From Candidatus Woesearchaeota archaeon (GTDB lineage Archaea > Nanobdellota > Nanobdellia > SCGC-AAA011-G17 > JACPNG01): 64,000 bases of DNA. The translations under genes and the position numbers were made by a program. Numbering within the stretch: position 1 is the stretch's first letter; every line of letters begins with the position of its first letter. Positions 4,930-26,963 of the stretch are shown here, piece by piece. The DNA lies in NCBI GenBank assembly GCA_018303365.1, contig JAGVYI010000016.1, positions 15,330 through 79,329 on the forward strand, given 5' to 3'. The notes under the pieces are model-generated. The model saw nothing but the letters and a program-made list of their open reading frames with translations. It ran no database searches and was not told where the DNA came from.

Positions 4930-5000
4930 TTTTTGTGTGCATGGCTGCTCTTTTTACAGTCTTCTTAGAATCGTATGTTTTAACCGTCTTTCTATAATTA

Positions 5001-10217: not shown

Positions 10218-10266
10218 TCACCTCTTTTTTGTTTTAGGTGTGCCTTATTTTAAATATCTTTGTTTT

Positions 10267-12564
10267 TTAGAATAAGCGACCTACCCAGCTTCCTATGTTA
10301 TCTATCATTCTTTCAATAACATTTCTTCTTTCTATCCCTTCTTCGGTTAACTCCTCTAATGCTTCCCGCCACTTTCCTGTCCTGATGAGCTTTACAACAT
10401 TCTCTTCTTCAAGCCCCTTTCTTTGCTTTACCAACTGTTCACGTTGCGCTAATTCCTCTGGTGGCAGTTCTGTTCCAAGAGCTGGTGCTGGCAAGTCTTC
10501 GCATAGGGGGGCGTCAAAATCAATAAGCCCGTCCCCATCACGGTCACAAATACTTTTTGTTGAGTCACTTGCTTCATTTATAAGACCGTCACAGTCTTCA
10601 TCCCTTCCTATTAGGTCACAGCACTCTGTTCCTACATTTCCTTTTTGTTCATAGTATTCGCACCTATTTGCGCATATTCCGTCTCCATCAAAATCAAACC
10701 ATCCACCACGGCACCCACTGCATTGTCCTTGTTCACATGTGAGGGCATTATTTGCAGCACAACTGTTGCCACATTCTCCACAATTGTTGGGGTCATTTCT
10801 TGCATCAAGTTCACACCCATCAGATAAGTCTCCGTTGCAATTTCTGAATCCTTGGTTACAACTTTCAATTAGACATACCCCAGATTCACACCTTCCCCTT
10901 GCATTTTGAAGATTACAACTGTTCCCTATTGCACCACAGTTACTTACGTCATTGTTTAGGTCTGCACAGGTGCTTGTTTGTGAATTCCACGAACAACTTT
11001 CTCCTGTTGCAACGTTGCATGGGTTTTGCAAGCAAGTTGTTTCATCTTTATAGTCTTGGCAGCTATTTGCATTTTCTTGGCATGCTGTACATAGGTCTGG
11101 TAGAAGAGTTCTTTGTGTGTAAAAGCAATTGCCCCCACATGTATCACAGACTTGTCTTGAGCATGTGCTTAGAAGGCCGCTTCCACATTCTTGACAGGAT
11201 GCGCAGGCACATTCTCCCCTGTTAATACATGCTGGGTTTGATGAACAGGCATCCTGTGTTGCACACCCATCTGAGCCTATTTGGCAACCTGCGGGGGTGT
11301 TCCTACATATATCTTGGCAATCATTTATCCCGTCTTCGTCTGAATCTCCTGCGGGTACAAGACGATATCCTTGGCAGATTCTGTTATCCTGAGTGCATTC
11401 TCCGTGAGTATTACATTCTTTTTCTCCACCACAGGTTCGTCCTTCAAATGTTCTGCTTAGGATACAGCCTGATGGGCACGTACAAATGCTTGGATTTCCT
11501 TTGATGCTTGGGTTTGTACATGTTTCGCCACATGCTGCAACATCTGTTGTCACCACCTGTTGTTGACCTACGCAATCCGGGTCTGGTGTGCTGCACCTTA
11601 ATGCACACCCGTTTCCCGCGGCACATGTTGATATTGACGTACAATCTTGGTCATAGTATGCACAATTTACTCCTAATTCTACCGGGCAAAACCCATCAGT
11701 TGCTCCGCATGCATAACATGTGTTGCAGATTTCTACTGCTTGTCTTGAATTGAGAGTGAAACCAAGTAGTCCGCAGGCGGTTGTTGTTCTTTCTCCTTCA
11801 ACAATTGTCCTTGTAGGCTGGGTTGTTTGCTGCTCTGTTCCTGTTTGCGTGCTTGCAGGAGCACTTGCCCTTATTGTTAGGCTTGTCTGCCCTGTTGCTC
11901 CAGCACTGTCTGTTACTGTAAGCCTGACAGTGTATTGACCTGCACTTTGATAGGTGTGGCTTGGGTTTTGTATCCTAGCTGTTTGTTCGTCTCCAAAATC
12001 CCAATTGTATGTAAGTATTCCTCCGTCTGGGTCTGATGAACCTAAACTATTGAATCGTACTGTTAGAGGAACTGTTCCTGAAAGAGGGTCTGCGTTTGCC
12101 CTTGCAGTTGGAGGATTGTTTAGCGGCTCTTGGGTTGTTCCTGTTTGTTGTGGTGCTGTTACGGTTATTGTGACAGTTTGACTTGCGCTTTCTCCTTTGT
12201 CATCTCTTAATGTAAATGTTGCTGTGTAGATTCCAGGTTGATTATAAGTTTTGGTTGGATTCTGGCTGTTAACTGGCTGAGACCCATCACCATAATCCCA
12301 TGTGGCAACTGTTGGGTCTCCATCTGGATCTGTTCCAGAACCAAAGAACCTTATAGTATGAGGGGCATTTCCTGATGGAGGGTTAGCTTCTATACTTATT
12401 ATTGTAGGTGCTCTGTTTTCTGGTTGTGCTTGCTCCTCTCCTGTCTCTTCAGGTGGTGGTGGGGGGATACCTCCTGGACCGCCGAGCTGAGCATTAGATA
12501 CTCCTATAGGGAGTAAAATAAGAATGATTAGTATTGCAATTAGTCTCTCTGACCTCTTTTTCAT
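10267..12564 (-). CDS. Large secreted protein with two PKD-like domains, Asp-rich Ca-binding (thrombospondin type-3-like) repeats and a Cys-rich region.
   Basis: Signal peptide, then PPPPPEE. PKD signatures WDYGDGS and WDFGDE. DSDEDGINDCQD and DRDGDGLIDFD repeats. It shares a CSTPDPDC motif with the neighbouring protein. Confidence 0.7.
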   Translation of the reverse strand: MKKRSERLIAILIILILLPIGVSNAQLGGPGGIPPPPPEETGEEQAQPENRAPTIISIEANPPSGNAPHTIRFFGSGTDPDGDPTVATWDYGDGSQPVNSQNPTKTYNQPGIYTATFTLRDDKGESASQTVTITVTAPQQTGTTQEPLNNPPTARANADPLSGTVPLTVRFNSLGSSDPDGGILTYNWDFGDEQTARIQNPSHTYQSAGQYTVRLTVTDSAGATGQTSLTIRASAPASTQTGTEQQTTQPTRTIVEGERTTTACGLLGFTLNSRQAVEICNTCYACGATDGFCPVELGVNCAYYDQDCTSISTCAAGNGCALRCSTPDPDCVGQQQVVTTDVAACGETCTNPSIKGNPSICTCPSGCILSRTFEGRTCGGEKECNTHGECTQDNRICQGYRLVPAGDSDEDGINDCQDICRNTPAGCQIGSDGCATQDACSSNPACINRGECACASCQECGSGLLSTCSRQVCDTCGGNCFYTQRTLLPDLCTACQENANSCQDYKDETTCLQNPCNVATGESCSWNSQTSTCADLNNDVSNCGAIGNSCNLQNARGRCESGVCLIESCNQGFRNCNGDLSDGCELDARNDPNNCGECGNSCAANNALTCEQGQCSGCRGGWFDFDGDGICANRCEYYEQKGNVGTECCDLIGRDEDCDGLINEASDSTKSICDRDGDGLIDFDAPLCEDLPAPALGTELPPEELAQREQLVKQRKGLEEENVVKLIRTGKWREALEELTEEGIERRNVIERMIDNIGSWVGRLF

Positions 12565-14602: not shown

Positions 14603-15141
14603 AAACATTTATTAATAACTCATTAAACATTAATTTCAATGAAAAAGAGGTCAAAGAAGAAGCCTTCTTCCAAGTTTTACCATCACCAGCTTTACATTCC
14701 AATCATTCTTGTTCTTTCTTTTGCTTCCCTTGCTTTGCTTTGGATATTTAGCACAGGTGCAACCGGTTATGCCACCTACAGCTTCGGCAACACTGTTCCG
14801 CAGGGGTTTGGAGTTCCGTGGAATGTATTTTCTTCACAGCATGAGAATATAATAAGCTCATCAAACGGAATGATTACTGCCCAGGCAGACTATGTCTATA
14901 AGTATGGCTATGTGTGGGATGGCAGCCAATGGACGCGCTTTGAGTTTCCACAGCAAAAGGTGTCTAATAATTGGGTTGCAAGAGAAGCTTCTTTTGATGT
15001 TAACAGTCTTGGTCTTACTGCTGGAGAATATTCTGTTGTTGCATATACATGCCAGTATGTGAATAAGGAATGGAAGTGCGGCTGTCGAACCTCACAGTGT
15101 CGAAACGGTGTTGATGGTGGTATGTGGCAGTTGCAGAAGGT
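14603..15141 (+). repeat. Direct repeat copy A, about 540 bp: promoter plus 5' coding region shared with 21063..21607.
   Basis: Manual alignment gives about 85-90% nt identity, including the TATA box, the ATG, the signal anchor and the CQYVN.EWKCGCRTSQCR domain. Confidence 0.8.
14608..14618 (+). promoter_or_regulatory. Archaeal TATA box (TTTATTAATAA) centred about 26 nt upstream of the ATG of paralog A; implies a leaderless transcript.
   Basis: An identical element at identical spacing precedes paralog B (21068..21078). Confidence 0.45.
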
Positions 15142-15991
15142 AAGAGTTACTGGTTCTTCTCTTGGTCCAAATGCTGAAATTCCAAGGAATATTGAGCTAG
15201 ATGTTCCCCATAGCCAAACCATATATAGAGGCGATTTATACTATTTAACTATAAATGTCTGGGGTGTTTCTAGCTTAGAGGGAATACATTACAAAGTGTT
15301 GTATTGTGATGCCACTGTTAATCCTAGTTGTGAACCAAACGTTGAGGGAAATAACATGATTCTAAATTCTAGTAATTGGAGATTTTTTAGAGGAACGACG
15401 AGAGGATGGAATAACTTCAACGCGACAGTTGCAAGATGGAGTGGGGATCGTACAGGGGGATTCAATTCCCTTTTTGGGCGCACAACCCCTCCAGAGGGTG
15501 AATATCGAGTTAGGTTTGTGTTGAATGGTATTGAATCTCAAGTCTATAATTTTAAGGTTGAGGATAGCAGGCCGGACAGGTCTCCTAGTTCGGCTGATTT
15601 TACTATATATCCGGCCCAAATGATCGAAGGCCAATCAGTTACCCTCCAGATTATAGCTACAGGAATTGCTTCAAGAAATGGTCTTGAAGATGCTGCAATT
15701 GAAATCAATACCTGTTATGCGGGGTCTTTTTCAAGTGATTATGAGGAACGAGATTGTTTTCCTGTTGGAGGTCAGAACACGCAGCGTCTTCCTCCTGCAG
15801 GGGATGATCCCTGGATACTTAGCAGTGACTCTTTATTTTCTCGAGCAACACTGTTAACTAGACCTTCAACTATTGTTCGTCCTAGGGAGGGTGGTAGTTA
15901 TCGGCCAGAGGAAGGTTACTACAATGTGTGGATTAAGATATATGGTACTGAATCTCATGTAAGCAGAATTGGAGTTAGAAGTTCTCCATAG
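14639..15991 (+). CDS. Surface protein paralog A: conserved N-terminal signal-anchor plus Cys-containing domain, with a unique C-terminal domain.
   Basis: MKKRSKKKPSSKFYHHQLYIPIILVLSFASLALLWIF... The first ~170 aa are nearly identical to those of the 21099 gene. Confidence 0.65.
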   Translation: MKKRSKKKPSSKFYHHQLYIPIILVLSFASLALLWIFSTGATGYATYSFGNTVPQGFGVPWNVFSSQHENIISSSNGMITAQADYVYKYGYVWDGSQWTRFEFPQQKVSNNWVAREASFDVNSLGLTAGEYSVVAYTCQYVNKEWKCGCRTSQCRNGVDGGMWQLQKVRVTGSSLGPNAEIPRNIELDVPHSQTIYRGDLYYLTINVWGVSSLEGIHYKVLYCDATVNPSCEPNVEGNNMILNSSNWRFFRGTTRGWNNFNATVARWSGDRTGGFNSLFGRTTPPEGEYRVRFVLNGIESQVYNFKVEDSRPDRSPSSADFTIYPAQMIEGQSVTLQIIATGIASRNGLEDAAIEINTCYAGSFSSDYEERDCFPVGGQNTQRLPPAGDDPWILSSDSLFSRATLLTRPSTIVRPREGGSYRPEEGYYNVWIKIYGTESHVSRIGVRSSP

Positions 15992-16031: not shown

Positions 16032-16529
16032 ATGTTTTACCAAAAGAGGGGTATTTCACCACTTATTGCTACTGTCTTGATTCTTGGTTTTACCGTGGCA
16101 CTTGGTGTTCTTATTATTAATTTTAGCACTTCGTTTACAAGAAATATTCAGGAACAGACAACGGAATCTTCAAACACCCAGATTATCTGTGCTCAAGAAG
16201 TACTATTTAGCATTTCTAATGCCTGCGATGCAGGAAATAATATTGTTCGCGTGACTGTCAAAAATGATGGTTCCAGAGATATTGATCGGTTTATCTCTAG
16301 ATTTTATAGGAGTGAGAGTGATGTTGCTCAAGAGACCCTTACATTTATTAATAATGGCAATGGCATTTCTTCTTTTAACATAGAGTCTGATGAGGTTACT
16401 ATTCCTAATGGTCCTGTTCGCCAAGTTGAACTTATCCCTGTTGTTACTATCTCTGGCAAATCTGTTACGTGTTCAACCAATGTTGACTCTTTCGGAGCTG
16501 TTCTTGGAGATGGTCTTCTTGGTTGCTGA
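16032..16529 (+). CDS. Archaeal pilin-like protein (DUF361-type).
   Basis: MFYQKRGISPLIATVLILGFTVALGVLI. The internal Met was chosen as the start; the ORF-track start at 15969 is upstream. Confidence 0.55.
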   Translation: MFYQKRGISPLIATVLILGFTVALGVLIINFSTSFTRNIQEQTTESSNTQIICAQEVLFSISNACDAGNNIVRVTVKNDGSRDIDRFISRFYRSESDVAQETLTFINNGNGISSFNIESDEVTIPNGPVRQVELIPVVTISGKSVTCSTNVDSFGAVLGDGLLGC

Positions 16530-16538
16530 AGGGTCATT

Positions 16539-17060
16539 ATGAAGCTGGGTGAGGTTTGGGTTTCTGCAGTTCTTTACTTGGCTTTGGGTCTTATACTTAT
16601 CACAATTGTTCTTGCTGCCGGCATCCCTCTTATTAACAAAATACGAGACCGCAATACTGTTGCGCAAACAAAGGACATTCTTTTTGTCCTTGATAAAAAC
16701 ATCCGAACTGTTGCTTCTGAAGGCACAGGCTCAAAGCGCTATGTAAGTCCGGTTAACATTGATGCGGGAGAGCTTGTTTTTGATTCTGACCAAGACAGAC
16801 TTTCCTGGAGCATGACAACAAGCAACAAACTTGCAGAGCCCAGTCTTACACTTCAGGAAGGAGTACTGTTTCTTCGCCTTGATGAGACTCCTATTTCTGA
16901 TGAGTATAAGGTTAATCTGTGGCTTGATTACCTGAATCTCTATGACCTTTTCATGGTTTCAGACTTTTCCAATCCTTTTTCTGGAACTTATAGTCTTTCT
17001 ATTGAAAATAATGGAACCTATGCCAATGGTCGACCCACGATTGTTTTAAGGGTTGCTTAG
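16539..17060 (+). CDS. Pilin-like / pilus-assembly accessory protein (FlaF/FlaG-like N-terminal anchor).
   Basis: N-terminal hydrophobic anchor VSAVLYLALGLILITIVLAAGIPLINKIR, then a beta-rich domain. Confidence 0.4.
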   Translation: MKLGEVWVSAVLYLALGLILITIVLAAGIPLINKIRDRNTVAQTKDILFVLDKNIRTVASEGTGSKRYVSPVNIDAGELVFDSDQDRLSWSMTTSNKLAEPSLTLQEGVLFLRLDETPISDEYKVNLWLDYLNLYDLFMVSDFSNPFSGTYSLSIENNGTYANGRPTIVLRVA

Positions 17061-17609
17061 GAAAAAACCTCTGATATACCTTTCTGGTTAAATTTTATTA
17101 ACTCTTTCACCAGAAATCCCAGTACTTTAGTACGGGGAGGATGTCACTGACGATTATTTCATAGATTGTCGTAAACTTCCAGAAGGGAATCCTTATAGAC
17201 CTCTGTATAATAGATTGGGAAGTTCTCATTATCGCCCTGTTGGTTGGCATAACATGGTGCATGAATTGCTACATAGGTTTGGAGCAACGGATATTTATCA
17301 AGGAACTCTTGATGTTGGAGACCCTCAAAGTAGAGAATTGGAAATATCAATGGACCAAAGATATGGGAGAGTATTATGGGAGATGAGATAAAGAATTGTG
17401 TAGAGTGGGTGGGTTTAGAAAGGGACGGAAATATTTGTTCACAAGAAGAATTGGAAAGCATATACTTAGATAGATACAATAGACAATTAATTGGATTAGA
17501 ATAGATTAAAATTCTTATTAAAAATATCTGTGTCTTATCTAACTTAGATTTAACAGAAAATTATATAAGCCCTTATTTTTTATAATCTTAGTCAAAAGAG
17601 GGTGATGCT

Positions 17610-19232
17610 GTGGAACTTGGTCTTTTTAGTAAAAAGAAAGAGAATCAACCGCAACAACCCCCTTCTTCAGTGCAATCTTCTTCTCAACAAAAACCTGTTT
17701 TTTCTCTTGAAGGTGATAAACCTCCAGCACAGCTTCCAGACTTTACAGATGTCTCAAAGGTTGATGTCCGCTACCCATTGCTTGCACCCTATGCTTTAGT
17801 TCACATTTACTGGGATGCTCCATCTCACGAGCTTGTCTATGAGGTTGAAGAGCCTCAACTCTCTTCTGAAGAAAAAGAAATGCTTTCAACCCTTGAGGAT
17901 GGTATTCGCGAGCTTATCAACATTAGCTTTGTAAACATCAAAGACGAGACGATCATTATTTCTTACCTTGAGAAAAATTTGCAGGTTTTACTCTCTGAGT
18001 TTCACCTACGTATAAAAAAAGAAACTTTCTTGAAGTTTATGTACTATATGTACCGCGACTTTGTCGGCCTTAATGAGATTGAGCCACTTATGCATGATTA
18101 TTATATTGAGGATATTGAATGCAACGGCTCCCAAACGCCCCTTTATATTATTCACCGCAAGTATCAGAATTTGCGAACAAATATTGTTTTTCCTTCAAAC
18201 CAGCCTCTTGCAAGTTTTGTTGAAAAGCTTGCACAGAAAACAGGGAAGTATGTATCATATGCAACGCCCCTTCTTGACGGCAGGCTTCCTGATGGTTCCC
18301 GTGTAAATGCAGTCTATTCCTCTGATGTTTCAAGCAGAGGACCGACTTTTACTATTAGGAAGTTTTCGCGTGAGCCATGGACTCCAATAAAACTTGTTGA
18401 TTTTCGTACTGTTTCTCCCGAGATTCTAGCATATCTTTGGATTCTTATTGAAAACGGTACCAATATCATGGTTGTTGGCGGGACCGGCTCTGGAAAGACT
18501 TCATTTTTGAATGCTATTGCTTTTTTTATTCCGCCTGCTGCCCGTATTGTCTCTATTGAAGATACAAAAGAACTGCAACTTGAGCATGAAAACTGGCTTC
18601 CAAGCATTGCCAGAGAAGGGATTGGTCTTGCTTCGTCCACTGGTCAGAAAAGGGGAGAGGTTACTTTATTCGACCTTCTTCGTGAGAGTTTTCGCCAGCG
18701 TCCTGATTATGTTATTGTTGGAGAGATTCGTGGCAAAGAGGCCTTTGTCCTTATCCAAGGGGCAAGTTCTGGCCATCCTTCTTTTGCAACAATGCATGCG
18801 GAGTCTGTTGAGTCCATGGTCAGGCGTCTAATGACTGAGCCTATTAATTTATCTCCCGCACTTGTTGAATCTATTGATGCTGTCTGCGTTTTAGTTCATG
18901 CAAAGGTTGGCGGCAAAGATGTTCGCCGGATTCGCGATATTTCTGAAATTATCAAGGTTTATCCAGACGGACAGGTGAAAACTAACGTACCCTTTGTCAG
19001 GGATCCACGCAGCGACAAATTTTATTTCCGTACTGGAAGCTATGTCTTTCAAAAGGTTGTTACCCAGCAAGGCATCAACCTGCAGGAGCTGAATCTTGAG
19101 TTTTCACGCAGGGCAAAGCTTCTTTTCAAACTATATGAGCAGAAAATTTTTGGATTTTCCGAAGTTCAGCAAGTTATTCACCAGTACTATAAATCTTCTA
19201 AGGAGGTTCTTTCCAGGTTCGGGATTTCTTAA
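17610..19232 (+). CDS. Type II/IV secretion-family ATPase (FlaI/TadA/PilB-like) of the archaeal pilus system.
   Basis: Walker A VVGGTGSGKTSF, the Asp/His boxes and GEIRG. GTG start, with AGAGGGTGA 5 nt upstream. Confidence 0.8.
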   Translation: MELGLFSKKKENQPQQPPSSVQSSSQQKPVFSLEGDKPPAQLPDFTDVSKVDVRYPLLAPYALVHIYWDAPSHELVYEVEEPQLSSEEKEMLSTLEDGIRELINISFVNIKDETIIISYLEKNLQVLLSEFHLRIKKETFLKFMYYMYRDFVGLNEIEPLMHDYYIEDIECNGSQTPLYIIHRKYQNLRTNIVFPSNQPLASFVEKLAQKTGKYVSYATPLLDGRLPDGSRVNAVYSSDVSSRGPTFTIRKFSREPWTPIKLVDFRTVSPEILAYLWILIENGTNIMVVGGTGSGKTSFLNAIAFFIPPAARIVSIEDTKELQLEHENWLPSIAREGIGLASSTGQKRGEVTLFDLLRESFRQRPDYVIVGEIRGKEAFVLIQGASSGHPSFATMHAESVESMVRRLMTEPINLSPALVESIDAVCVLVHAKVGGKDVRRIRDISEIIKVYPDGQVKTNVPFVRDPRSDKFYFRTGSYVFQKVVTQQGINLQELNLEFSRRAKLLFKLYEQKIFGFSEVQQVIHQYYKSSKEVLSRFGIS

Positions 19233-19234
19233 TT

Positions 19235-20209
19235 ATGGCAGACACATCTTCGTTTGTTGACAAAGAGACTCTTTCGCGCTATGTTGCTTTTCGCAAGAAG
19301 CACAAAGGGGATTTGAAAGATGAGTATGTTCTTTATTCTTCAAGCCCATTTGGACAGTTTGCTAATTCTATTTTTGAATCTGTTTCGCTAAATCTTATAA
19401 AAAAATATCCGCAATATTTCAAGAGTTTGTTTAAGGTCCTACGCGCTTCTGATTTTCCAATTCTTTCAAAGACATATGTCAGCATTATTCTACTTGTTGG
19501 GTTAGCTTCTTATCCTGTTTTTTTTATTCTTCTGCTTCTTTTATTTGGATTCTCAATTACCGGCTTTCTTAACACTTTTCTTCTAAGCCTTTTTGGTGCT
19601 GGACTTGCTCTTTTTCTTGCTTACCAATACCCTTCTTTTTTGGTTTCTTCGCGTCAGAGAAAGTTAAAAAATGACCTTCCATTTGCAGTTATCCATATGG
19701 CTGCTGTTGGAGGCAGCGGAGCCCATCCTTCTTCTATGTTCAACCTTATTGCAACCTCAGATGAGTATAAAGGGGTTCATCCAGAATTTAAGCGGGTTCT
19801 AAACGCTGTGAACCTTTTTGGATATGACCTAAGCACTGCTCTTCGCTCTGTTGCTGACAGTACTGGCTCGAGGGATATTCGCGACTTTTTCGGGGGTATG
19901 GCAACAACAATTGAAAGTGGCGGCAGCATGAAGGAGTTTCTTGATTCAAAGTCTGAGGACCTGATGGTAACATATCGTCTTGAGCGCAAGAAGTTTATCG
20001 AGAGCCTATCAACCTATTCTGATATTTACATTAGCCTATCAATTGGCGGGCCCCTTTTCTTTTTTATTGTCCTTGCTATCTTAAATCTACTTGGCGGTTC
20101 TGTCGGCGGGGTTGCGATCGGCACTCTTGCCACTATCGGTACTTTTGTTATCCTTCCTCTTATCAACCTCGGATTTTTAGCATTTTTAAAATTTAGCAGT
20201 TTAGAATGA
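19235..20209 (+). CDS. FlaJ/TadB-like membrane platform protein, first half.
   Basis: TM segments flank a GspF-like cytoplasmic helical domain. It starts 3 nt after the ATPase stop. Confidence 0.6.
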   Translation: MADTSSFVDKETLSRYVAFRKKHKGDLKDEYVLYSSSPFGQFANSIFESVSLNLIKKYPQYFKSLFKVLRASDFPILSKTYVSIILLVGLASYPVFFILLLLLFGFSITGFLNTFLLSLFGAGLALFLAYQYPSFLVSSRQRKLKNDLPFAVIHMAAVGGSGAHPSSMFNLIATSDEYKGVHPEFKRVLNAVNLFGYDLSTALRSVADSTGSRDIRDFFGGMATTIESGGSMKEFLDSKSEDLMVTYRLERKKFIESLSTYSDIYISLSIGGPLFFFIVLAILNLLGGSVGGVAIGTLATIGTFVILPLINLGFLAFLKFSSLE

Positions 20210-21060
20210 TTAATTTCAAGAAAGAATATTTTGTCGGCATCAGTCTTGCTTTGGTTTTACTAGTTCTAGATGTCTTGTTTCTTCGCTCTACCCGCTGGTT
20301 TATTGCTATTATTATTGTTTCTATCAATATTGGCTGGCTTCAGTTCTGGATTGACTTTTTTCGTGAACAGAACCGTCAGAAGGAAATTGATACAAAATTT
20401 CTTGAGTTTGTTCGCAATCTTGTCAGCACTGCCAAATCCGGTCTTTCAATTCCCAGGGCTATTATTCAAGCTTCTGGTGAGGACTATGGCGCTCTTACAC
20501 CATATGTTCGAAAGCTTTCTCACCAGGTTGAGTGGGGTGTTCCTGTTGAAAAGGCTCTTTTGACCTTTGCAAAGGATACTCGAAATGCTGTGATCAGCAG
20601 GTCTGTTTCTATTGTTATTGAAGCGAGCAAGGCTGGCGGTGATATAGAAAATGTTCTTGATTCTGTTACTGATTCTGTGATGTACGTAAAGAAAATCAAG
20701 CAGGAGAGGAAAAGCGGAACGTACTCGCAAATAGTCCAGGGTTATATTGTTTTTTTTATTTTCATTGCAATAATGCTTGTTTTGCAGCTCTGGCTTTTTC
20801 CACAGTTTTCTAATTTGAAAGGTCTTGGCCAAGGCGGCTCAGAGCTTGCTGGTTCTCTTGGTACAGGTGCTATTTTCGGTGAAGGAAAGCGTGCTGACAT
20901 AGATAGCATTTTTTTTAGTCTTATTCTTGTACAAGGTTTTTTTTCGGGAGTTATGATTGGTGCGTTCTCTGAAGGAAGCGTGAAGCGCGGTCTTTTGCAT
21001 TCTCTTGTTTTGATGACTCTTGCAACGCTTATTATTACAACTGCGAAGGGCGGGATTTAG
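20206..21060 (+). CDS. FlaJ/TadC-like membrane platform protein, second half.
   Basis: A second GspF-like domain between TM segments. ATGA overlap with the first half. Confidence 0.6.
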   Translation: MINFKKEYFVGISLALVLLVLDVLFLRSTRWFIAIIIVSINIGWLQFWIDFFREQNRQKEIDTKFLEFVRNLVSTAKSGLSIPRAIIQASGEDYGALTPYVRKLSHQVEWGVPVEKALLTFAKDTRNAVISRSVSIVIEASKAGGDIENVLDSVTDSVMYVKKIKQERKSGTYSQIVQGYIVFFIFIAIMLVLQLWLFPQFSNLKGLGQGGSELAGSLGTGAIFGEGKRADIDSIFFSLILVQGFFSGVMIGAFSEGSVKRGLLHSLVLMTLATLIITTAKGGI

Positions 21061-21062
21061 CA

Positions 21063-21607
21063 AAACATTTATTAATAACCCATTAAACATTAATTTTAAT
21101 GAAAAAGAGATCAAAGAAGAAGCCTTCTTTTAAGTTTTACCATCACCAGCTTTACATTCCAATCCTTCTTGTTCTTTCTTTTGCCTCCCTTGCTTTGCTG
21201 TGGATATTTAGCACCGGTGCGACTGGTTATGCCACCTACAGCTTTGGCAACACTGTTCCGCAGGGGTTCGGTGTTCCTTGGAATTTGTTTTCCAGTCAGC
21301 ATGAGAACTTGCTTGATTCTTCTGATAATACAATAAATGTTAAGGCAACTTTTGTCTATAAGTGGGGTTATATATGGGATCATAATGTCAGGCAGTGGAA
21401 GGGGTTTGAGTTTCCACAGCAGAAGGTATTTAATAATTGGGTTGCAAGAGAGGCTTCTTTTGATCTTAATAGCTTAAACCTTGTCCCTGGAGAGTATTCT
21501 GTTGTTGCCTATACCTGCCAGTATGTGAATAATGAATGGAAGTGCGGCTGTCGAACCTCACAGTGTCGAAGCGGTGTTGATGGAGGCATGTGGCAGATAC
21601 AGAAGGT
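21063..21607 (+). repeat. Direct repeat copy B (partner of 14603..15141).
   Basis: See copy A. Confidence 0.8.
21068..21078 (+). promoter_or_regulatory. Archaeal TATA box (TTTATTAATAA) for paralog B; leaderless spacing.
   Basis: Same element and spacing as at 14608. Confidence 0.45.
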
Positions 21608-22832
21608 TGATATTATTTCTGGCATAACCAAAGTAGGGACTGTGACTTATCGTGATGGCGATGCTTTTATTGGAGAAAATAAAAATAATCCAAAATGGGT
21701 TTGGAATTTAGAAGGTTTAACTACAAGTAATCCTACTCTTGGTGTTGAAAATGATTGGAAATATAGGGGTGTGTCCGATAGGGATACTGGTGTTTCTAGT
21801 GCTATTGGGGTTAGACAGTGTACAAACCTTCCAAATAATTATATTACCATTTGTTTTGCTGATATTGTTGGTTTAAACGAGAACATAGATAATTATACTA
21901 TATCCTTTGAGGAGAATATTGATTTGAGTGGTGCTGGAGGAAGATTTTCAACTTATATAGCCCGAAATGTTATTACCATTAGTAGTAATACCCAAAGTAT
22001 TGACTTGCATTCTTCTGCATCCCACGTTGTTACAAATTATGTTGCTTTAGTTATAGATGATTTAGATTCTAATAAGATAAACTTGTTCTATAAGGGGAGT
22101 AGGGGTTTTGTATTCTTTAGTGATTTAGCGAATTCAAAAGTGGCACTCTCCAATGATTGGTCCAATGATTTGCGACTTGATTTGATGAGTGGGTCTGGTG
22201 ACTTATACTCTTTGCACATTAATTCTCCTGTTGATGTTATTTCAGCTTTGTTCCGTGCTAGTGGTGGACGCGGTTTTTCTTCTCTTGGTAGCACACGTGG
22301 TTATGAAGAGTCTGGAGAATTGGTGTGGCAGTCTGACGACCCTAATACCGGAGTTGCTCTTTACTCTTTGAATATAGGGGCAATAGATGCAGACCTTCGA
22401 ACGTTGTATGGTGTTGTCATAAAAAATCCACGCGGCAATGGGGCTTCTGATGAAATATCCTTAGAAGTTCCAAGCAAACAACTTAGGGGGATTATTGAGA
22501 TAACTTCTCCTTCACTTAGACAACGAAAGGAAATTGCACTGGGGGGGTCCATAGGCAATAATCCATTATTTTCGGATAGCAATTATGGACTACTTACTTT
22601 TTCAAGAGACAGTCCAAGCCTAGAAACCAGTCTGTCTAGTTCAGAGAATGATTATGGAAGGAGGATATTTATGGAAGTAGATGTTGATTCTATAGCATAC
22701 ACTTCCCGTTCTCTTGACCTTTCAAGGCTAAGAACAGCATCCCCCCAAAATCCAGTTACGATAAATCATTTATTAGGAAGAGATATTACAATAACCGGAG
22801 TAACAGATAATTCAATAACAGTACTACAATAA
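21099..22832 (+). CDS. Surface protein paralog B: the same conserved N-terminal module, with a different C-terminal domain.
   Basis: The N-terminal ~170 aa are nearly identical to the 14639 gene; the remaining ~400 aa are unrelated. Confidence 0.65.
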   Translation: MKKRSKKKPSFKFYHHQLYIPILLVLSFASLALLWIFSTGATGYATYSFGNTVPQGFGVPWNLFSSQHENLLDSSDNTINVKATFVYKWGYIWDHNVRQWKGFEFPQQKVFNNWVAREASFDLNSLNLVPGEYSVVAYTCQYVNNEWKCGCRTSQCRSGVDGGMWQIQKVDIISGITKVGTVTYRDGDAFIGENKNNPKWVWNLEGLTTSNPTLGVENDWKYRGVSDRDTGVSSAIGVRQCTNLPNNYITICFADIVGLNENIDNYTISFEENIDLSGAGGRFSTYIARNVITISSNTQSIDLHSSASHVVTNYVALVIDDLDSNKINLFYKGSRGFVFFSDLANSKVALSNDWSNDLRLDLMSGSGDLYSLHINSPVDVISALFRASGGRGFSSLGSTRGYEESGELVWQSDDPNTGVALYSLNIGAIDADLRTLYGVVIKNPRGNGASDEISLEVPSKQLRGIIEITSPSLRQRKEIALGGSIGNNPLFSDSNYGLLTFSRDSPSLETSLSSSENDYGRRIFMEVDVDSIAYTSRSLDLSRLRTASPQNPVTINHLLGRDITITGVTDNSITVLQ

Positions 22833-22888: not shown

Positions 22889-25834
22889 TTGATGTTTAAA
22901 AGAGGTGTAAGCCATATTGACTGGGCTATTAGTATTGGCATCTTTCTTGTCCTTGTCCTCAGCATTGTTGTTTTTTTAAGACCTGGAGTTGAGACTTTTA
23001 CAAGCCATCAGGCGCTTGTGCAAACTGTCGAGTCAAACCTTAGAAGTGAATTTTCCAACGAACTTGAAAAGACTCCAATTTTTATTAATTCCACTGAGCA
23101 GCGTGCTGGAGATTACCAGATTACTTTCACTTTTGATGGTGGGGGCTTTCCATTTGAGGGAGAGAATGAAGAGTTTGTTGTTGTTGACTCTTTGAGCGCT
23201 GTTGTCCCGACTCAAATTTCAGGGGATGGCAGGGACCGTACACTTCGCTTTGACGGGTTTTTAGACCCACGCAAGACAAATGTGTTTTATATTCTCCATG
23301 CAAACGACACAACTTATTTGTCTTCTAATTTGGAGAACACATTTGTTCTTTTTGCTGGCTTAAACTTTTCTTATGACTTTGGAGTTACCAGAATAGAGCG
23401 CGGTTTTGACCTTTCAAGACTTCGTACAATTGAGCAGGATTATGATGCACTTAAAGAAACTTGGGGAATTCCTTCGGACAGAGAGTTTCTTATTCAAATT
23501 GCGCAGACTGACACATTTCGCTATACTTTTGATGACATTATTTTTCGCTATGCCAGACAAGACCCTACTTTTCAATCAGATGTTTTTGTTAAGGAGTTTA
23601 GAGATATTCTTCTTGACCCAAATGGTACGCGCACACCAATTCTTGTGAATATTCAAGCTGGGTTTTTTGGTGAGCCTACAAAGATTATATGCGCTGTTGA
23701 TGAAGATTGTGGGGTTTGCAACAGTTGTGTTAACGGCCAATGTGAAGCAGTCTCTTTTGGCAGTGATCCTCTTAACCAATGCAAAGATGTTGACTGCAGT
23801 GATTATTACTTTGGGTTTGTCGGCGGTGTTTGCTATGGGCGCGCTTCTATCCAGTCTGTTTGCAATGGTGCTGGGGCATGTACACAGGTTTCCGAGGATG
23901 ATTGTCCTGTTTCTGGTCGCGGAGAGTCATCAGGTGTGAGCTGTAGTGAATGCCAGCAAGAGAGCGGGTGCTCTGGGACCACTATGGGTTCTTGCTCTGT
24001 TGCTCTAGATGGTACAGATTGCATGGGGCTGTGCTCGCAGTGTGTTTCAGGTGCGTGCCGCCAGGCACCTTCTGATGATGCCTCGTGCGGCACTATTGAC
24101 TGCGATAACCTTGATGGATATAGCGTTGTTGGAGACAACTCTGCAAGCGGCAGTGCGAGCTGTGTTTTACGGGATTACTCCGACTTAACTTCCAATCGCT
24201 GTGAGGGGCTTCTTGACTGCCGAGATCCAAATACCGCCCCTGATTGTTCTGTTTTTACAGATAGGACTTTAGCTAATTGCGGTGTTTGCCAGCGTGTGCA
24301 AAGCTGTTCTCCTAATGGTGCGACCTGTACCACCTATCCTGCTAATACTCCCTGCGGCCCAGACAGGGTTTGCACTGAGACGGGTCAGTGCGTACGCTCT
24401 CCTCTTGAGATTCGTGGGGTCAAGCGCTTTACTTCCGGCAATTATGAATATGGTTTTGTTCGTATTTATCCTGGCGGGAAAATTATTCTTGATGGAGACA
24501 ATGTTGCTATTACTGTTGATGCATTTTTTGAAAATAACGGTGCTGTTGAGAGCAATACTTTTTCTCCACATCTTACTATTCGCGGCAGAGAGATTACTGG
24601 TTCTGGCCCTTATGCCCTTCAAGGAGGAAGGGGTCGCTATGAATGCGGGTGGAATGATGCTTGCTGGTGGGGAAGCGGAGGAGATTCCTCTCTTGTTTTA
24701 GATGCCAGTGCTGTATCTACAGGGGCTGTTAATGTTCGTTCTGGTTCTGGAGGTCCTGGAGGCAGGGCTTCTGTGATATTCAGGAATGCCCAAAATGGAA
24801 ACGTTGCGTCTTTGAGTGTTATTGGGGCTTCAGGAGCCAATAGCGGCATTAGTTCTTTTGGATGTAGCGGTTATAATGGTGGCAGTGCTGATGTTTCCTT
24901 TGAGTCTAGCTCTTTAAATATTGGGTCTGTTGTTGTTCAAGGAGGAGATGCTTCTTCTCCTGCATGTGTCGGTGAACCTGGGACCGGCGGGAGTGCTACT
25001 TTTCGTGGCAGCGGCAGTGGAGCTTCTATTACCTTTACTTCTTCTTTTAATTTAGAGGGTGGGGATGGCACCAGCGGTTATAGTTCTTATTATAGAACTT
25101 CTGTTTTTGGGCGCGGTGGATCTGCAGAGGTTTCTTTGAGCAATGGCGGAGATGTTTCTTTTCTTGGGCCAGTAAACCTTCAAGGCGGTATCGGCGGTTA
25201 CTCCTCAGGTGCGGGTGTTATGAGCATATCTGCAAACAGACTATCCCAAAAAAGGGAACTTGTTATTGCTGCTGGCCAAGCGCGAAGCGGTGTTTGCCGT
25301 GCTTATACCTGTTGGGATTCTGGGGCAGTGCTTAATTCACAGGGTGGAGAAGCGCGTTTGAGCTTTTCAGGGAATTCTTATACTTCTGAGGGGCCTGTTA
25401 CACTTACTGCTGGGTCTGGGTTTTCTGTCTCTTCTGGAGGCAGCGCCCTTGTTTCCATTCAAGCAACAAACAGCTTTTCTTATACTTCTCCTTTTACTCT
25501 GCGCGCCGGGAACTCTTTTGATGGGTGCCTTAATGGCTATTATGGAGGAAATGCAATTGTTGATATCAATAGTCAGACTATTTCAGGCAGCTCCTCTTTT
25601 ACTACTTATGGTGGTAATGGAGGCCGCGCCTCTGAACCTTACTGGTGTAATGATGCGTGCTATGAACGTGTGGGGGGTAATGGGGGAGATTCTCTTTTGC
25701 GCCTTCGTACCAGTTCAACAGACCCACCCCATAATGGGCAGGGAGGGAGTGTGGGAGGCAATGCCGGAAGTTTTTGTCGTTATAAGCAGTCTTCGCGACC
25801 AACAAATGGGAGGTTTGCAACAGAAAGATATTGA
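22889..25834 (+). CDS. Giant (981 aa) pilin-anchored surface protein: class-III-like N-terminus, a Cys-rich region, and a long Gly/Ser-rich repetitive region that may be beta-helix-like.
   Basis: MMFKRGVSHIDWAISIGIFLVLVLSIVVF. Dense Cys clusters across aa 260-480. Recurrent GG.G/SGS segments in the C-terminal half. Confidence 0.65.
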   Translation: MMFKRGVSHIDWAISIGIFLVLVLSIVVFLRPGVETFTSHQALVQTVESNLRSEFSNELEKTPIFINSTEQRAGDYQITFTFDGGGFPFEGENEEFVVVDSLSAVVPTQISGDGRDRTLRFDGFLDPRKTNVFYILHANDTTYLSSNLENTFVLFAGLNFSYDFGVTRIERGFDLSRLRTIEQDYDALKETWGIPSDREFLIQIAQTDTFRYTFDDIIFRYARQDPTFQSDVFVKEFRDILLDPNGTRTPILVNIQAGFFGEPTKIICAVDEDCGVCNSCVNGQCEAVSFGSDPLNQCKDVDCSDYYFGFVGGVCYGRASIQSVCNGAGACTQVSEDDCPVSGRGESSGVSCSECQQESGCSGTTMGSCSVALDGTDCMGLCSQCVSGACRQAPSDDASCGTIDCDNLDGYSVVGDNSASGSASCVLRDYSDLTSNRCEGLLDCRDPNTAPDCSVFTDRTLANCGVCQRVQSCSPNGATCTTYPANTPCGPDRVCTETGQCVRSPLEIRGVKRFTSGNYEYGFVRIYPGGKIILDGDNVAITVDAFFENNGAVESNTFSPHLTIRGREITGSGPYALQGGRGRYECGWNDACWWGSGGDSSLVLDASAVSTGAVNVRSGSGGPGGRASVIFRNAQNGNVASLSVIGASGANSGISSFGCSGYNGGSADVSFESSSLNIGSVVVQGGDASSPACVGEPGTGGSATFRGSGSGASITFTSSFNLEGGDGTSGYSSYYRTSVFGRGGSAEVSLSNGGDVSFLGPVNLQGGIGGYSSGAGVMSISANRLSQKRELVIAAGQARSGVCRAYTCWDSGAVLNSQGGEARLSFSGNSYTSEGPVTLTAGSGFSVSSGGSALVSIQATNSFSYTSPFTLRAGNSFDGCLNGYYGGNAIVDINSQTISGSSSFTTYGGNGGRASEPYWCNDACYERVGGNGGDSLLRLRTSSTDPPHNGQGGSVGGNAGSFCRYKQSSRPTNGRFATERY

Positions 25835-26550
25835 AAATGACTTTTTTGTTTTGGGATAGAGATGGTGTTTTTTCAAAAAAAGGGTCTACTCTCTTTTTTT
25901 TAATCGTTCTTATACTCTTAGGAATAGGCGCTTATTTTGGATATCGTTATTTTTTTCCTGATGACCAGAAAACCTTTAATCAGTCTATCTTAGAAGAAGA
26001 TGTTGGGGGTTGCTCTAGCATTGATGATCCTTTTTTGCGCCGCTCTTGCATTCATTTTATTTTGGGTAATCCCAACATTACTGAAGAACATTTTCTTTTT
26101 ACTGACCCTTTAGCACGCACTTTTGAGAGCATCCATAGCGCCACTGTTTATCCTAATGGAACACAAATTCCTTGCGAACGCATTGACGATGCTGGTCTTA
26201 GCGAGGCCTGCCTTTCCTTGAAAGGGCAGGATACCACGTGCTCTGATTCGTGCAAGGCTTGGGTTTCTTATCTTAGTGCAATAAAAAAAGATGATCCTTC
26301 TTTATGCGATTCCCTGACAGAGGTTCTTGTTTCATCTAAGGGGGTTTCACTTCGAGGGGCTTGCTTTTCTTTTTTTGAGGGTTATGATACTCCACCACTT
26401 GAATCTCTTGAACACAATGAGAAGTATTACCGCGATGCTCTTTTTTCTTTGAAATTAGAAGAATGCGAAAAAATTACTCTGGACTCTTTTCGTGAGAAGT
26501 GCAGAGAAGATGTTTCTCTACGCCTTTCTGTTCTGGAGGATCAACAATGA
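25831..26550 (+). CDS. Class-III signal-like membrane-anchored Cys-containing protein.
   Basis: SKKGSTLFFLIVLILLGIGAYFGY. ATGA overlap with the upstream gene. Confidence 0.45.
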   Translation: MKMTFLFWDRDGVFSKKGSTLFFLIVLILLGIGAYFGYRYFFPDDQKTFNQSILEEDVGGCSSIDDPFLRRSCIHFILGNPNITEEHFLFTDPLARTFESIHSATVYPNGTQIPCERIDDAGLSEACLSLKGQDTTCSDSCKAWVSYLSAIKKDDPSLCDSLTEVLVSSKGVSLRGACFSFFEGYDTPPLESLEHNEKYYRDALFSLKLEECEKITLDSFREKCREDVSLRLSVLEDQQ

Positions 26551-26963
26551 TTTTCTCCAATCGCTCAGGGTATCTTAGAACACTTGAGGCAATTATTGCT
26601 GCTGTCCTTGTCCTTATATTCATTTTTACACTTCTTCCAAGGCGTGAGATTTCTTCCCCTGAGACCCCTTATGTTGTTCAAAGCTCACAGGAATTTATAT
26701 TGAACCAGATTCTTGTTAATGACACTCTTCGCGGGTGTGTTGTTTCTGATCCGCTGTGCGAGAATTCTGATGCTATGCGTCAGCTTATTCTAGACAATCT
26801 TCCTCCGGGGTACACTTATGGATTTAAGATTTGTGACACTACTAATTGCCTTATTTCTACATCTCCGGATAAGTCGGTCTTTGTTGATGACGTGCTTCTC
26901 TCTGCTGATTTGGCAAGCCAGAATCCAAAAGTATTTCGCCTTTGGCTCTGGGAAGGAGAGTAA
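26547..26963 (+). CDS. Pilin-like small protein.
   Basis: MIFSNRSGYLRTLEAIIAAVLVLIFIFTLLP. ATGA overlap; internal start chosen. Confidence 0.4.
   Translation: MIFSNRSGYLRTLEAIIAAVLVLIFIFTLLPRREISSPETPYVVQSSQEFILNQILVNDTLRGCVVSDPLCENSDAMRQLILDNLPPGYTYGFKICDTTNCLISTSPDKSVFVDDVLLSADLASQNPKVFRLWLWEGE

Follow-up and report, generated by a model that had tools for sequence, protein, structure and literature searches.

Gene content of the locus

The window (the whole stretch of DNA analysed, 64 kb in length) includes a cluster of genes encoding a secretion ATPase, two proteins of about 300 aa, called here ORF1 and ORF2, and several pilin-like proteins. A protein 100% identical to the ORF2 product (P0121) carries the NCBI name Candidatus Woesearchaeota archaeon. 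The features are as follows.

14639..15991, plus strand: membrane-anchored or secreted protein, 450 aa, paralog of the 21099-22832 product
16032..16529, plus strand: 165-aa pilin-like protein; its N-terminus (MFYQKRG/ISPLIATVLILGF) reads as an archaeal class III signal peptide
16539..17060, plus strand: 173-aa pilin-like protein, hydrophobic at its N-terminus
17610..19232, plus strand: FlaI/PilB-type (VirB11-family) secretion ATPase, 540 aa
19235..20209, plus strand: ORF1, predicted N-half platform subunit, 324 aa, ATG start
20206..20209, plus strand: ATGA start/stop overlap of ORF1 and ORF2, read from the sequence
20206..21060, plus strand: ORF2, predicted C-half platform subunit, 284 aa, ATG start
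21099..22832, plus strand: the second of the two paralogs, 577 aa, likewise membrane-anchored or secreted, directly 3' of ORF2
22892..25834, plus strand: large Cys-/Gly-rich protein, 980 aa, with a pilin-like N-terminus, MFKRG/VSHIDWAISIGIFLVLVL
25837-26550 and 26547-26963, plus strand: two small genes overlapping by 4 nt, whose translations have pilin-like hydrophobic N-termini

The ATPase stop codon lies 2 nt upstream of the ORF1 start. ORF2 begins inside the ATGA at 20206-20209, where its start overlaps the TGA stop of ORF1 by 4 nt, and its reading frame is -1 with respect to that of ORF1. This type of junction suggests that translation of the two genes may be coupled. The initial annotation had described two half-size platform genes of an archaeon (324 and 284 aa) coupled by an ATGA, and both the coordinates and the sequence agree with that description.

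The ATPase carries a Walker A motif (GGTGSGKT) at residue 290, and T2SSE is its only Pfam domain (E 2.4e-34). It aligns with positions 26-522 of the 527-position NCBIfam FlaI model at 394 bits, the cutoff being 550 bits. Using BLASTP, it is 39-44% identical over nearly its full length to the ATPases of three other split-platform loci (L097, L099 and L100, described below); for the L100 ATPase, which carries the Pfam domains PilB3_N and PilB3_C, the figure is 39% over residues 50-536. Identity to haloarchaeal PilB is 32-36% (BLASTP). With CpaF the match is limited to the core region and reaches 126-174 bits, compared with 287-448 bits for archaeal ATPases.

The pilin-like genes encode proteins of 138-980 aa, and their class III-like N-termini were picked by eye. 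Their Pfam matches are few and weak. The 16032..16529 product has no above-threshold match, the 16539..17060 product matches DUF7289 under the gathering score (E 0.0026) and the 22892..25834 product has a weak, sub-threshold match to DUF7287 (residues 5-46, E 0.013). To judge from its sequence, the latter protein is a candidate tip or minor pilin or an adhesin. Neither of the two small genes at 25837-26550 and 26547-26963 gives a product with a Pfam match; both are also called as genes in two identical loci (L001 and L002). A prepilin peptidase gene was not found among the scanned ORFs of the 64-kb window.

The two paralogous membrane-anchored or secreted proteins share their N-terminus and the region upstream of their genes. 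This is visible at the nucleotide level as direct repeats (14603-14847 with 21063-21307, 91%; 14919-15141 with 21385-21607, 86%). The 21099..22832 product has no Pfam match. An 81-aa ORF at 14332 has an N-terminus that is lipoprotein-like, not Flp-like.

Domains and predicted structure of ORF1 and ORF2

Each of the two ORFs includes a single Pfam T2SSF domain (PF00482), and both exceed the gathering score of 25.2 bits.

19694-20071, plus strand: T2SSF domain of ORF1 (Pfam; residues 154-279, 51.6 bits, E 1.2e-13)
20407-20784, plus strand: T2SSF domain of ORF2 (Pfam; residues 68-193, 63.1 bits, E 3.3e-17)

The initial annotation was thus right in attributing one GspF-like domain to each ORF. It had also placed transmembrane (TM) helices around each domain, and a Kyte-Doolittle hydropathy scan does find hydrophobic spans bracketing T2SSF on both sides. 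There are four in ORF1 (approximately residues 80-102, 108-130, 262-286 and 296-320) and five in ORF2 (approximately 8-26, 31-50, 175-200, 233-255 and 262-281). ORF1 is laid out as a cytoplasmic N-terminus of about 75 aa, two TM helices, a GspF-like cytoplasmic domain and two further TM helices. The layout of ORF2 is two TM helices, a GspF-like cytoplasmic domain, one TM helix, a low-confidence loop (208-228) and two TM helices.

Sequence searches of the PDB with ORF1 and ORF2 gave no significant match. In the AlphaFold2 models (pLDDT 84.0 for ORF1 and 77.6 for ORF2), the cytoplasmic domains resemble the solved domains of PilC, EpsF, OutF and TcpE, and have the GspF/PilC-type helical-bundle fold. 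When the ORF2 model was compared with the EpsF, OutF and PilC domains using Foldseek, target-normalised TM-scores were 0.70-0.74 with a probability of 1.00.

Both families have invariant glycine motifs: G160-S161-G162 and G229-G230 of ORF1 in the N-half family, and S78-G79 and G144-G145 of ORF2 in the C-half family. A study of CpaF describes two superfamily-wide glycines at the ATPase-contacting tip of each cytoplasmic domain (PMC11300603). We assume that the motifs seen here correspond to these tip glycines.

Relationship to fused platform proteins

The two ORFs match different parts of the single-chain archaeal platform proteins. In one NCBIfam ArlJ model (555 positions) ORF1 aligns with positions 7-242 and ORF2 with 303-544; in a second ArlJ model (465 positions) ORF2 aligns with 197-452. 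The scores, 101 and 56.7 bits, are far under the equivalog cutoffs of 550 and 400. The haloarchaeal representatives compared, from which L096 (Natronorubrum) was left out as it looks degraded, have a fused PilC of 674-701 aa. Using hhalign, the N-half family aligns with residues 19-326 of this protein (score 168) and the C-half family with residues 432-677 (score 117, E 1.6e-15). Conversely, three fused haloarchaeal PilCs are recognised both by the N-half profile (82-94 bits) and by the C-half profile (67-72 bits). By these alignments ORF1 is the first half and ORF2 the second half of a fused FlaJ/PilC protein, in colinear order. The N and C families are also homologous to each other (hhalign score 55-58).

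Mean Kimura distances of the halves are 2.1-2.7 to fused haloarchaeal PilC and 4.9-5.9 to Tad, the latter being saturated. Neighbour-joining (NJ) trees place the halves of fused haloarchaeal PilC within the split forms, a hint of switching between fusion and fission. A tentative reading, less probable than not, is that the colinear two-gene platform common to Woesearchaeota and Thermoplasmata-type archaea is a split lineage distinct from Epd/Tad, in which the halves have the opposite order, that haloarchaeal PilC would be a secondary re-fusion and that the DPANN/Thermoplasmata form, and not Epd, could be the closest model of the state preceding Tad. The platform gene would then have changed between one gene and two on more than one occasion.

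The split might instead be the very fission that produced EpdJ/K and TadB/TadC, with this locus a surviving example of the ancestral split form. Here too there is one T2SSF domain per gene, as in Epd and Tad (PMC6668835), and the halves can be matched: TadC aligns best with the first half of fused PilC (hhalign score 73.6 versus 40.8) and the C-half family prefers TadB (90) over TadC (66.5). Epd has been proposed as a possible derivative of archaeal clade 2, and both include systems with two tadC-like genes (PMC4858521). The split clade is also large and old (2340 representatives at E <= 1e-3). Against this, the gene order is ATPase, N-half, C-half here, ATPase, C-half, N-half in Tad, and in Epd the ATPase comes last. 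The halves are far nearer to fused haloarchaeal PilC (168 and 117) than to the Tad profiles (59-90), as they are in Kimura distance, and the nested halves of haloarchaeal PilC would have to be re-fusions. A Flp-size pilin and a TadZ/FlaH gene are, moreover, absent from the locus. We consider a shared fission with Epd and Tad less likely than not. The NJ trees cannot place Tad, because the distances are saturated and because TadB and TadC were never recovered as clades in the bootstraps.

Conservation of the split

A genome scan using the C-half family as query returned only Woesearchaeota/Nanoarchaeia loci (80/80, all from metagenome-assembled genomes). The species loci that contain both halves number 74, and the split is universal among them: N-half and C-half are encoded by two genes that follow the ATPase in that order, and none is fused. 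The ATPase gene adjoins the pair in 69 of these; in the remaining five the contig stops before the position where it would be expected. On one related contig (L082) a C-half gene occurs without an adjoining N-half, and strict pairing is thus not universal.

The arrangement extends to four more distant loci (L097, L098, L099 and L100), again in the order ATPase, N-half (291-432 aa), C-half. Their N-halves score 132-336 bits with the N-half HMM and terminate in PE[VS]-stop, a 'PE-x-stop' end that they share with the window locus. L097 is from Thermoplasmata HGW-1. Both the two-gene layout and the position of the split are conserved within Woesearchaeota/Nanoarchaeia and extend to the more distant loci, one of them from a Thermoplasmata genome. 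That the split point is common to Thermoplasmata-type systems indicates that the split is old and functional.

Among the 150 closest ORF2 representatives (down to 28% identity), 23 proteins are at least 450 aa long and none of these has a second T2SSF-like region. Long relatives of ORF2 (577-876 aa) were considered as fused two-domain proteins and rejected, since Pfam, both family HMMs and hhalign find in them one T2SSF domain and a polytopic N-terminal extension.

These data also bear on whether the two genes are simply duplicated paralogs, each forming a homo-oligomeric platform of its own, for example for different sets of pilins. The N and C families are homologous, TadB and TadC were once treated as a duplication (PMC6668835) and several distinct pilin-like genes are present at the locus. 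The idea is nevertheless improbable: ORF1 and ORF2 map to different halves of the fused proteins, the paired genes of the 74 loci always adjoin in the same order, next to a single ATPase and with junctions of the kind seen in coupled genes, and the N-type and C-type proteins are distinct orthologous lines that can be followed as far as Thermoplasmata-type loci.

The junctions themselves vary. The spacing is -4 nt in 25/74 loci and +1 nt in another 25/74, and ranges overall from -23 to +227 nt (using first-start ORF calls); the three relative frames are represented by 34, 31 and 9 loci. This makes it very improbable that ORF1 and ORF2 are joined at the ATGA into a fused, full-length platform, whether by programmed -1 frameshifting or by readthrough of the stop codon. 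ORF2 does lie in the -1 frame across the ORF1 stop, and in nine of the 74 loci both ORFs are in one frame. However, ORF2 has its own ATG, at a position kept in its homologs, and no slippery heptamer could be seen by eye in the TTTAGAATGA context.

A single-base indel artefact, or a recent pseudogenising break in a fused FlaJ-like gene, could likewise leave a -1 frame and a 4-nt overlap, but is effectively refuted by the identical 324+284 split in four independent assemblies from different samples, by separate genes with differing junctions in three frames in all 74 loci, by the tight lengths of the ORF2 homologs (277-295 aa at 100% coverage, with a single exception of 252 aa at 90%), by the conserved C-terminal end of the N-half family, at which ORF1 stops, and by the two TM helices of its own with which ORF2 opens. 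The initial annotation had asked for a check that the boundary is not a sequencing frameshift, and the assemblies and related loci show that it is not. It had also offered a fission event as one explanation; a recent one is ruled out by the maintenance of the split across related and distant loci.

A model for the platform

We conclude that ORF1 and ORF2 are most probably the complementary inner-membrane platform subunits of an archaeal type IV pilus machine. We would give this reading, together with the steps outlined here, a probability of about 85%. The core is a three-gene unit in which the gene for a FlaI/PilB3-like, presumably hexameric ATPase is followed, after 2 nt, by ORF1 and, through the 4-nt ATGA overlap, by ORF2; pilin-like genes with candidate class III signal peptides lie on both sides. 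Translation coupled through the overlap would deliver ORF1 and ORF2 in a ratio of about 1:1. The two proteins may then pair back-to-back, the resulting pseudo-symmetric heterodimer being the counterpart of a single fused platform protein, by analogy with the back-to-back heterodimer modelled for CpaG/CpaH of the Tad system (PMC11300603). The heterodimer would dock onto the ATPase by way of the tips of its cytoplasmic domains, where the conserved glycines are assumed to lie, and movements driven by ATP would pass through it to the membrane helices. These in turn would extract processed pilins from the membrane and feed them into the pilus as it grows. For a DPANN organism, the most likely role of such a pilus would be attachment to a host or to a surface.

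Comparison with known systems

A split platform is not new. Two tadC-like genes have been described in archaeal clade 1, in many clade 2 and in clade 4B loci (Makarova, Koonin & Albers 2016, PMC4858521), and Denise, Abby & Rocha 2019 (PMC6668835) reported fission of the platform in Epd-like systems, where each gene has one T2SSF domain. Clusters of TadA, TadB and TadC are known in Nanohaloarchaeota and Undinarchaeota (PMC9563170). The layout is thus old, widespread in archaea and already published, and the split genes and their link to TadB/TadC carry little weight as a discovery. The initial annotation took the single polypeptide to be the usual form of archaeal platforms. This was overstated in view of these published two-gene forms and of the long relatives of ORF2, of which 0/23 are two-domain proteins.

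For the bacterial Tad system (TadB/TadC or CpaG/CpaH) we used four loci (L008, L009, L010 and L091). From L093, where TadB is split between two ORFs, TadC alone was used. A plasmid match from Granulicella (L092) was considered as a Tad locus and dropped, since it is a conjugative type IV secretion system. Searching plasmids with ORF2 using tblastn gave only weak actinobacterial TadB/C-like matches (E 0.04-0.7); because it missed haloarchaeal PilC, tblastn was not used in inferring relationships.

The Tad system resembles this locus in having, directly 3' of an ATPase gene, a pair of adjoining genes whose products, of about 300 aa, have a single T2SSF domain and flanking TM helices each, and CpaG/CpaH are thought to work as a single heterodimeric platform (PMC11300603). 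The TadB/TadC-like organisation proposed in the initial annotation holds to this extent. It does not hold for the order of the halves. Ralstonia TadB aligns with residues 266-365 of UpsF and Ralstonia TadC with residues 40-220; Tad therefore has a C-half-like gene followed by an N-half-like gene, the reverse of the window locus. This reversal bears on the scenario in which TadB and TadC arose from a 'stop codon in the ancestral gene'. Nor is the locus close to Tad in sequence: in addition to the lower profile scores given above, both halves and the ATPase are much nearer to euryarchaeal PilB3/PilC-type systems. The host is archaeal and the locus has no secretin, TadE/F/G or FlaH-type gene. Among the ORFs between 12.6 and 28.2 kb and the other scanned ORFs of the window there was no Flp-type pilin, TadZ (MinD/ParA-like) or TadV peptidase.

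The Epd (EppA-dependent) system of Methanococcus maripaludis and the Epd-like clade, compared here through its published description (PMC6668835), is also archaeal and also has two contiguous platform genes with one T2SSF domain each. Its order is platform, platform, ATPase and a FlaH/KaiC-like gene, whereas the ATPase comes first in the window locus and no KaiC/FlaH-like gene adjoins the ATPase and platform genes. The major pilins of Epd are very short, in contrast to the 138-980 aa of the pilin-like genes here.

The fold and topology are equal to those of ArlJ/FlaJ, PilC, UpsF and BasF, and ORF1 and ORF2 together are colinear with ArlJ. Those proteins differ in being one polypeptide with two T2SSF domains. 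The order ATPase then platform is that of flaI-flaJ in the archaellum; archaellin and FlaF/G/H genes are absent from the neighbourhood of ORF1 and ORF2.

The probable affinity of the system is with the PilB3/PilC-type pili of euryarchaeal 'clade 2' and not with Epd (clade 1, itself a possible fast-evolving derivative of euryarchaeal clade 2; Makarova 2016, PMC4858521) or Tad. The assignment is indirect: it comes from resemblance to haloarchaeal systems and to those with PilB3 domains. As in clade 2, an ATPase gene is followed by two tadC-like genes, and orthologs of both halves with an equal split point occur in a Thermoplasmata locus. When the neighbouring pilin-like genes were examined for pilins of the euryarchaeal PilA or arCOG02911-type families, the matches were limited to weak, sub-threshold ones to the haloarchaeal DUF7287 and DUF7289. 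There are also differences. The haloarchaeal representatives compared have a fused PilC, and Thermoplasmata-type relatives carry an N-terminal extension of 8-12 TM helices on the C-half that is lacking in the minimal ORF2 (284 aa). An N-terminal extension of about 100 aa on the N-half, common in other Woesearchaeota, is likewise lacking in ORF1. Finally, the host is a member of the DPANN (Woesearchaeota), not a euryarchaeon, and for DPANN biology the locus provides a compact candidate operon for a host-attachment pilus.

Two complementary platform genes

The initial annotation described a FlaJ-like platform protein encoded by two consecutive ORFs of 324 and 284 aa, joined by an ATGA overlap. 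The ORF list and the sequence itself confirm this arrangement:

19235-20209, + strand: ORF1, N-half platform subunit, 324 aa
20206-21060, + strand: ORF2, C-half platform subunit, 284 aa
20206-20209, + strand: ATGA, in which the TGA of ORF1 is overlapped by the ATG of ORF2

Each ORF has, as had been proposed, a single Pfam T2SSF match, at residues 154-279 of ORF1 (51.6 bits, E 1.2e-13) and 68-193 of ORF2 (63.1 bits, E 3.3e-17), both well over the gathering score of 25.2 bits. A hydropathy scan places two hydrophobic spans ahead of the domain in both proteins, ORF1 having two more after it and ORF2 three. AlphaFold2 models built from the family alignments are confident (pLDDT 84.0 for ORF1 and 77.6 for ORF2), and in both the cytoplasmic domain matches solved platform domains; for ORF2 these are EpsF, OutF and PilC (Foldseek probability 1.00, TM-score normalised to the target 0.70-0.74). 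ORF positions, T2SSF matches, hydropathy and model-structure matches together put the observation far beyond chance. The family alignments also include invariant glycine motifs: G160-S161-G162 and G229-G230 (ORF1 numbering) in the N-half family, and S78-G79 and G144-G145 (ORF2 numbering) in the C-half family.

The two ORFs occupy different parts of the NCBIfam ArlJ/FlaJ profile, ORF1 positions 7-242 of 555 and ORF2 positions 303-544 of 555 (197-452 of 465 in a second model). As a fused reference set we used three haloarchaeal PilC proteins of 674-701 aa, from plasmids. The N-half family aligns with their first half (hhalign score 168, E 1e-21; HMM 82-94 bits) and the C-half family with their second (hhalign score 117, E 1.6e-15; HMM 67-72 bits). 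These profile positions and alignments indicate that ORF1 and ORF2 complement each other, in the order in which a fused platform gene has its halves, and are not duplicate copies of one half.

Conservation of the split in Woesearchaeota

ORF2 is 100% identical to an NCBI protein of Candidatus Woesearchaeota archaeon, and all 80 related genome loci are from Woesearchaeota/Nanoarchaeia MAGs; the host is a DPANN archaeon. These loci come from a scan in which the C-half alignment was run against a single genome for each GTDB species, and 74 of them include both halves. N-half and C-half are separate ORFs in every one of the 74 (fused, 0/74), with the ATPase upstream in 69; the remaining five contigs end short of the ATPase position. 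The two genes overlap by 4 nt in 25 loci and are 1 nt apart in another 25, the other junctions ranging from -23 to +227 nt (first-start ORF calls), and the C-half occurs in all three frames relative to the N-half (34, 31 and 9 loci).

A frameshift at the boundary had been raised as a possible artefact. The identical locus, with genes of 324 and 284 aa and the 4-nt overlap, is present in four independent assemblies (three from ENA and one from JGI samples), and the separate ORFs, varied junctions and three frames of the 74 species loci exclude a sequencing indel. The variation in junction and frame also speaks against a conserved programmed frameshift.

At 53-65% identity, the C-half homologs have lengths of 277-295 aa, with one exception of 252 aa at 90% coverage. 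N-half homologs (312-481 aa) all have a conserved C-terminal end, and their spread in length is due to an optional N-terminal extension of ~100 aa. In the N-half alignment (A2) this extension is poorly conserved, charged and coiled-coil-like; it is carried by most Woesearchaeota N-halves and is absent from the window N-half (19235-19460 region) and a minority of relatives. The lone exception to the paired layout is a groundwater Woesearchaeota contig (L082:2131-5351; C-half gene 4494-5351). No N-half gene was found on this 7-kb contig; the gene ahead of its C-half encodes a protein of 786 aa, rich in Asn and Thr, that has a single TM helix at the C-terminus and lacks T2SSF.

In many Woesearchaeota relatives the pilus ATPase gene encodes 1000-1500 aa. 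The three long ATPases checked (L023:486-5042, L031:1249-4368 and L088:1178-4645) all carry a Pfam Intein_splicing domain within T2SSE, and the inteins of L023 and L088 also a LAGLIDADG homing-endonuclease domain. Long ATPase ORFs occur too in loci L030, L036, L039, L044, L046, L055, L056, L058 and L090. The window ATPase (540 aa) has no intein.

The surrounding pilus locus

The platform pair lies among the following genes:

14639-15991: membrane-anchored protein, 450 aa, paralog of 21099-22832
16032-16529: gene with a class III (prepilin)-like signal peptide, MFYQKRG/ISPLIATVLIL
16539-17060: gene with a class III-like N-terminus, weak DUF7289 match
17610-19232: T2SSE-family ATPase, 540 aa, Walker A GGTGSGKT, stop 2 nt upstream of ORF1
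21099-22832: membrane-anchored protein, 577 aa, paralog of 14639-15991
22892-25834: gene with a class III-like N-terminus, 980 aa, weak DUF7287 match
25837-26550 and 26547-26963: two genes with class III-like N-termini

Against the NCBIfam FlaI model the ATPase gives a nearly full-length match of 394 bits, under the 550-bit equivalog cutoff. By eye, a TATA-like TTATATAA is found ~40 nt 5' of its start (at about 17562) and GGGTGAT just ahead of the start; these suggest that ATPase, N-half and C-half would form a single transcription unit. The 550-nt gap 5' of the ATPase (17061-17609) contains a small ORF (17215-17391) with a HELLH zinc-protease-like motif (WHNMVHELLHRFGATDIY), which may be the remnant of a degraded gene.

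The two paralogs bracket the pilin/ATPase/platform core. They derive from a partial duplication (14603-15141 / 21063-21607; 245 nt at 91% and 223 nt at 86% identity) that takes in ~36 nt 5' of the start codons; their N-termini are the same, and they probably have a promoter region in common. A further trio with class III-like signals (6209-6964, 6961-7401 and 7392-7862, in the region 6209-12564) lies beside two large secreted proteins of 794 and 765 aa on the minus strand. The latter has PKD domains in its precomputed Pfam record; scanning of the former gave no Pfam match. The genes at 6.2-12.6 kb may extend the pilus/adhesion island to ~21 kb. There is no second ATPase or platform gene within the window, and no prepilin peptidase among the window ORFs scanned.

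The split form beyond Woesearchaeota

ORF2 was searched exhaustively with HMMER against 1.84 billion cluster representatives, which yielded 2340 proteins at E <= 1e-3, of which 988 reach <= 1e-10 and 121 reach <= 1e-30. Among the best 150 of these 2340 the majority are half-size, and 23 are at least 450 aa long. We considered these 23 as possible fused two-domain platforms, using both family HMMs on all and Pfam and/or hhalign on twelve; each has a single T2SSF, at its C-terminal end, and a second was found in none. Nine of the ten long relatives scanned for hydropathy have polytopic N-terminal extensions with many TM spans, the exception being P0372 (469 aa), with just a few spans before its T2SSF domain.

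Two long C-half forms belong to Thermoplasmatota. Thermoplasmata-type C-halves of 577-876 aa include P0381 (L097:8001-9896), P0379, P0286, P0309, P0322, P0326, P0327 and P0338; these have an N-terminal extension, estimated at about 8-12 helices from hydropathy spans that overlap, and no second T2SSF domain, and they too come after an N-half gene of their own (about 292 aa).

All four distant split loci fetched (L097, from Thermoplasmata HGW-1; L098; L099; and L100, whose ATPase has Pfam PilB3_N and PilB3_C) have the order ATPase, N-half (291-432 aa), C-half. Their N-halves score 132-336 bits with the N-half HMM and each terminates in PE[VS]-stop. Gene order, N-half orthologs and these shared ends indicate a split position common to Woesearchaeota and Thermoplasmata-type systems. 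The graded similarity of the window ATPase is consistent with this: 55-63% identity to Woesearchaeota, 39-44% to the distant split loci and 32-36% to haloarchaeal PilB, with only the ATPase core matching bacterial CpaF (126-174 bits).

Proposed function

The locus encodes two complementary single-domain membrane subunits as a conserved, tightly coupled gene pair that follows a pilus ATPase. The finding is real, and to read the pair functionally as a split platform is sound. Coupled translation would supply the subunits at about 1:1, and the two would pair into a pseudo-symmetric heterodimer that corresponds to a single fused PilC/FlaJ. The cytoplasmic domains of this heterodimer would dock onto the ATPase hexamer, and ATP-driven movements would be passed to the membrane helices, loading processed pilins into the pilus base. 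In a DPANN cell the pilus would probably serve attachment to a host or surface. For CpaG/CpaH, a published model has the two back to back, as a heterodimer that touches the CpaF hexamer via conserved glycines (Hohl et al. 2024, PMC11300603).

Comparison with known systems

Rather than a TadB/TadC-like rarity, the layout is an established and widespread archaeal arrangement. Two tadC-like genes occur in clade 1, many clade 2 euryarchaeal and clade 4B loci (Makarova, Koonin and Albers 2016, PMC4858521). TadA/TadB/TadC clusters have been described in Nanohaloarchaeota, one pilus cluster being reported to have an architecture identical to that of all known Undinarchaeota (2022 study, PMC9563170). 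Epd-like and Tad platform genes have one T2SSF each, which was explained by fission of a two-domain ancestor, TadC being N-like and TadB being C-like (Denise, Abby and Rocha 2019, PMC6668835).

We reproduced this last result with Tad loci on plasmids of Sinorhizobium, Ralstonia, Carboxydocella and Clostridioides. On UpsF, the Ralstonia proteins cover 40-220 (TadC) and 266-365 (TadB), and Carboxydocella TadB matches ArlJ 188-347. The TadC profile scores higher on the N half of haloarchaeal PilC (73.6) than on its C half (40.8), and the C-half family higher with TadB (90) than with TadC (66.5). TadC is thus N-half-like and TadB C-half-like, so that in Tad the ATPase is followed by the C-like and then the N-like gene, whereas the window locus has N then C. 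The Tad analogy holds for the two single-domain genes and fails for gene order, accessory genes and sequence affinity, the ORF1/ORF2 families being much nearer fused haloarchaeal PilC (mean Kimura distance 2.1-2.7, versus 4.9-5.9 for Tad, the latter saturated).

N-type proteins and haloarchaeal N halves form a clade in 98/100 NJ bootstraps, and a split-C-type clade without the fused haloarchaeal C halves appears in 0/100; TadB and TadC received no placement in the NJ analysis. The haloarchaeal C halves (of the PilC genes L007:9419-11524, L094:3453-5492 and L095:3459-5483) are nearest to the long Thermoplasmata-type C-halves (27-30% identity) and fall inside split C-half diversity (NJ, few fused taxa). 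There is a weak hint here that the haloarchaeal single-gene platform could be a secondary fusion. The Epd locus, known here from its literature description, has the order platform, platform, ATPase, FlaH-like gene, with very short pilins (PMC6668835), unlike the ATPase, N-half, C-half order of the window locus. The window split and the Epd/Tad split may go back to one event or to independent events, or the window form may be the state from which fused haloarchaeal PilC arose anew.
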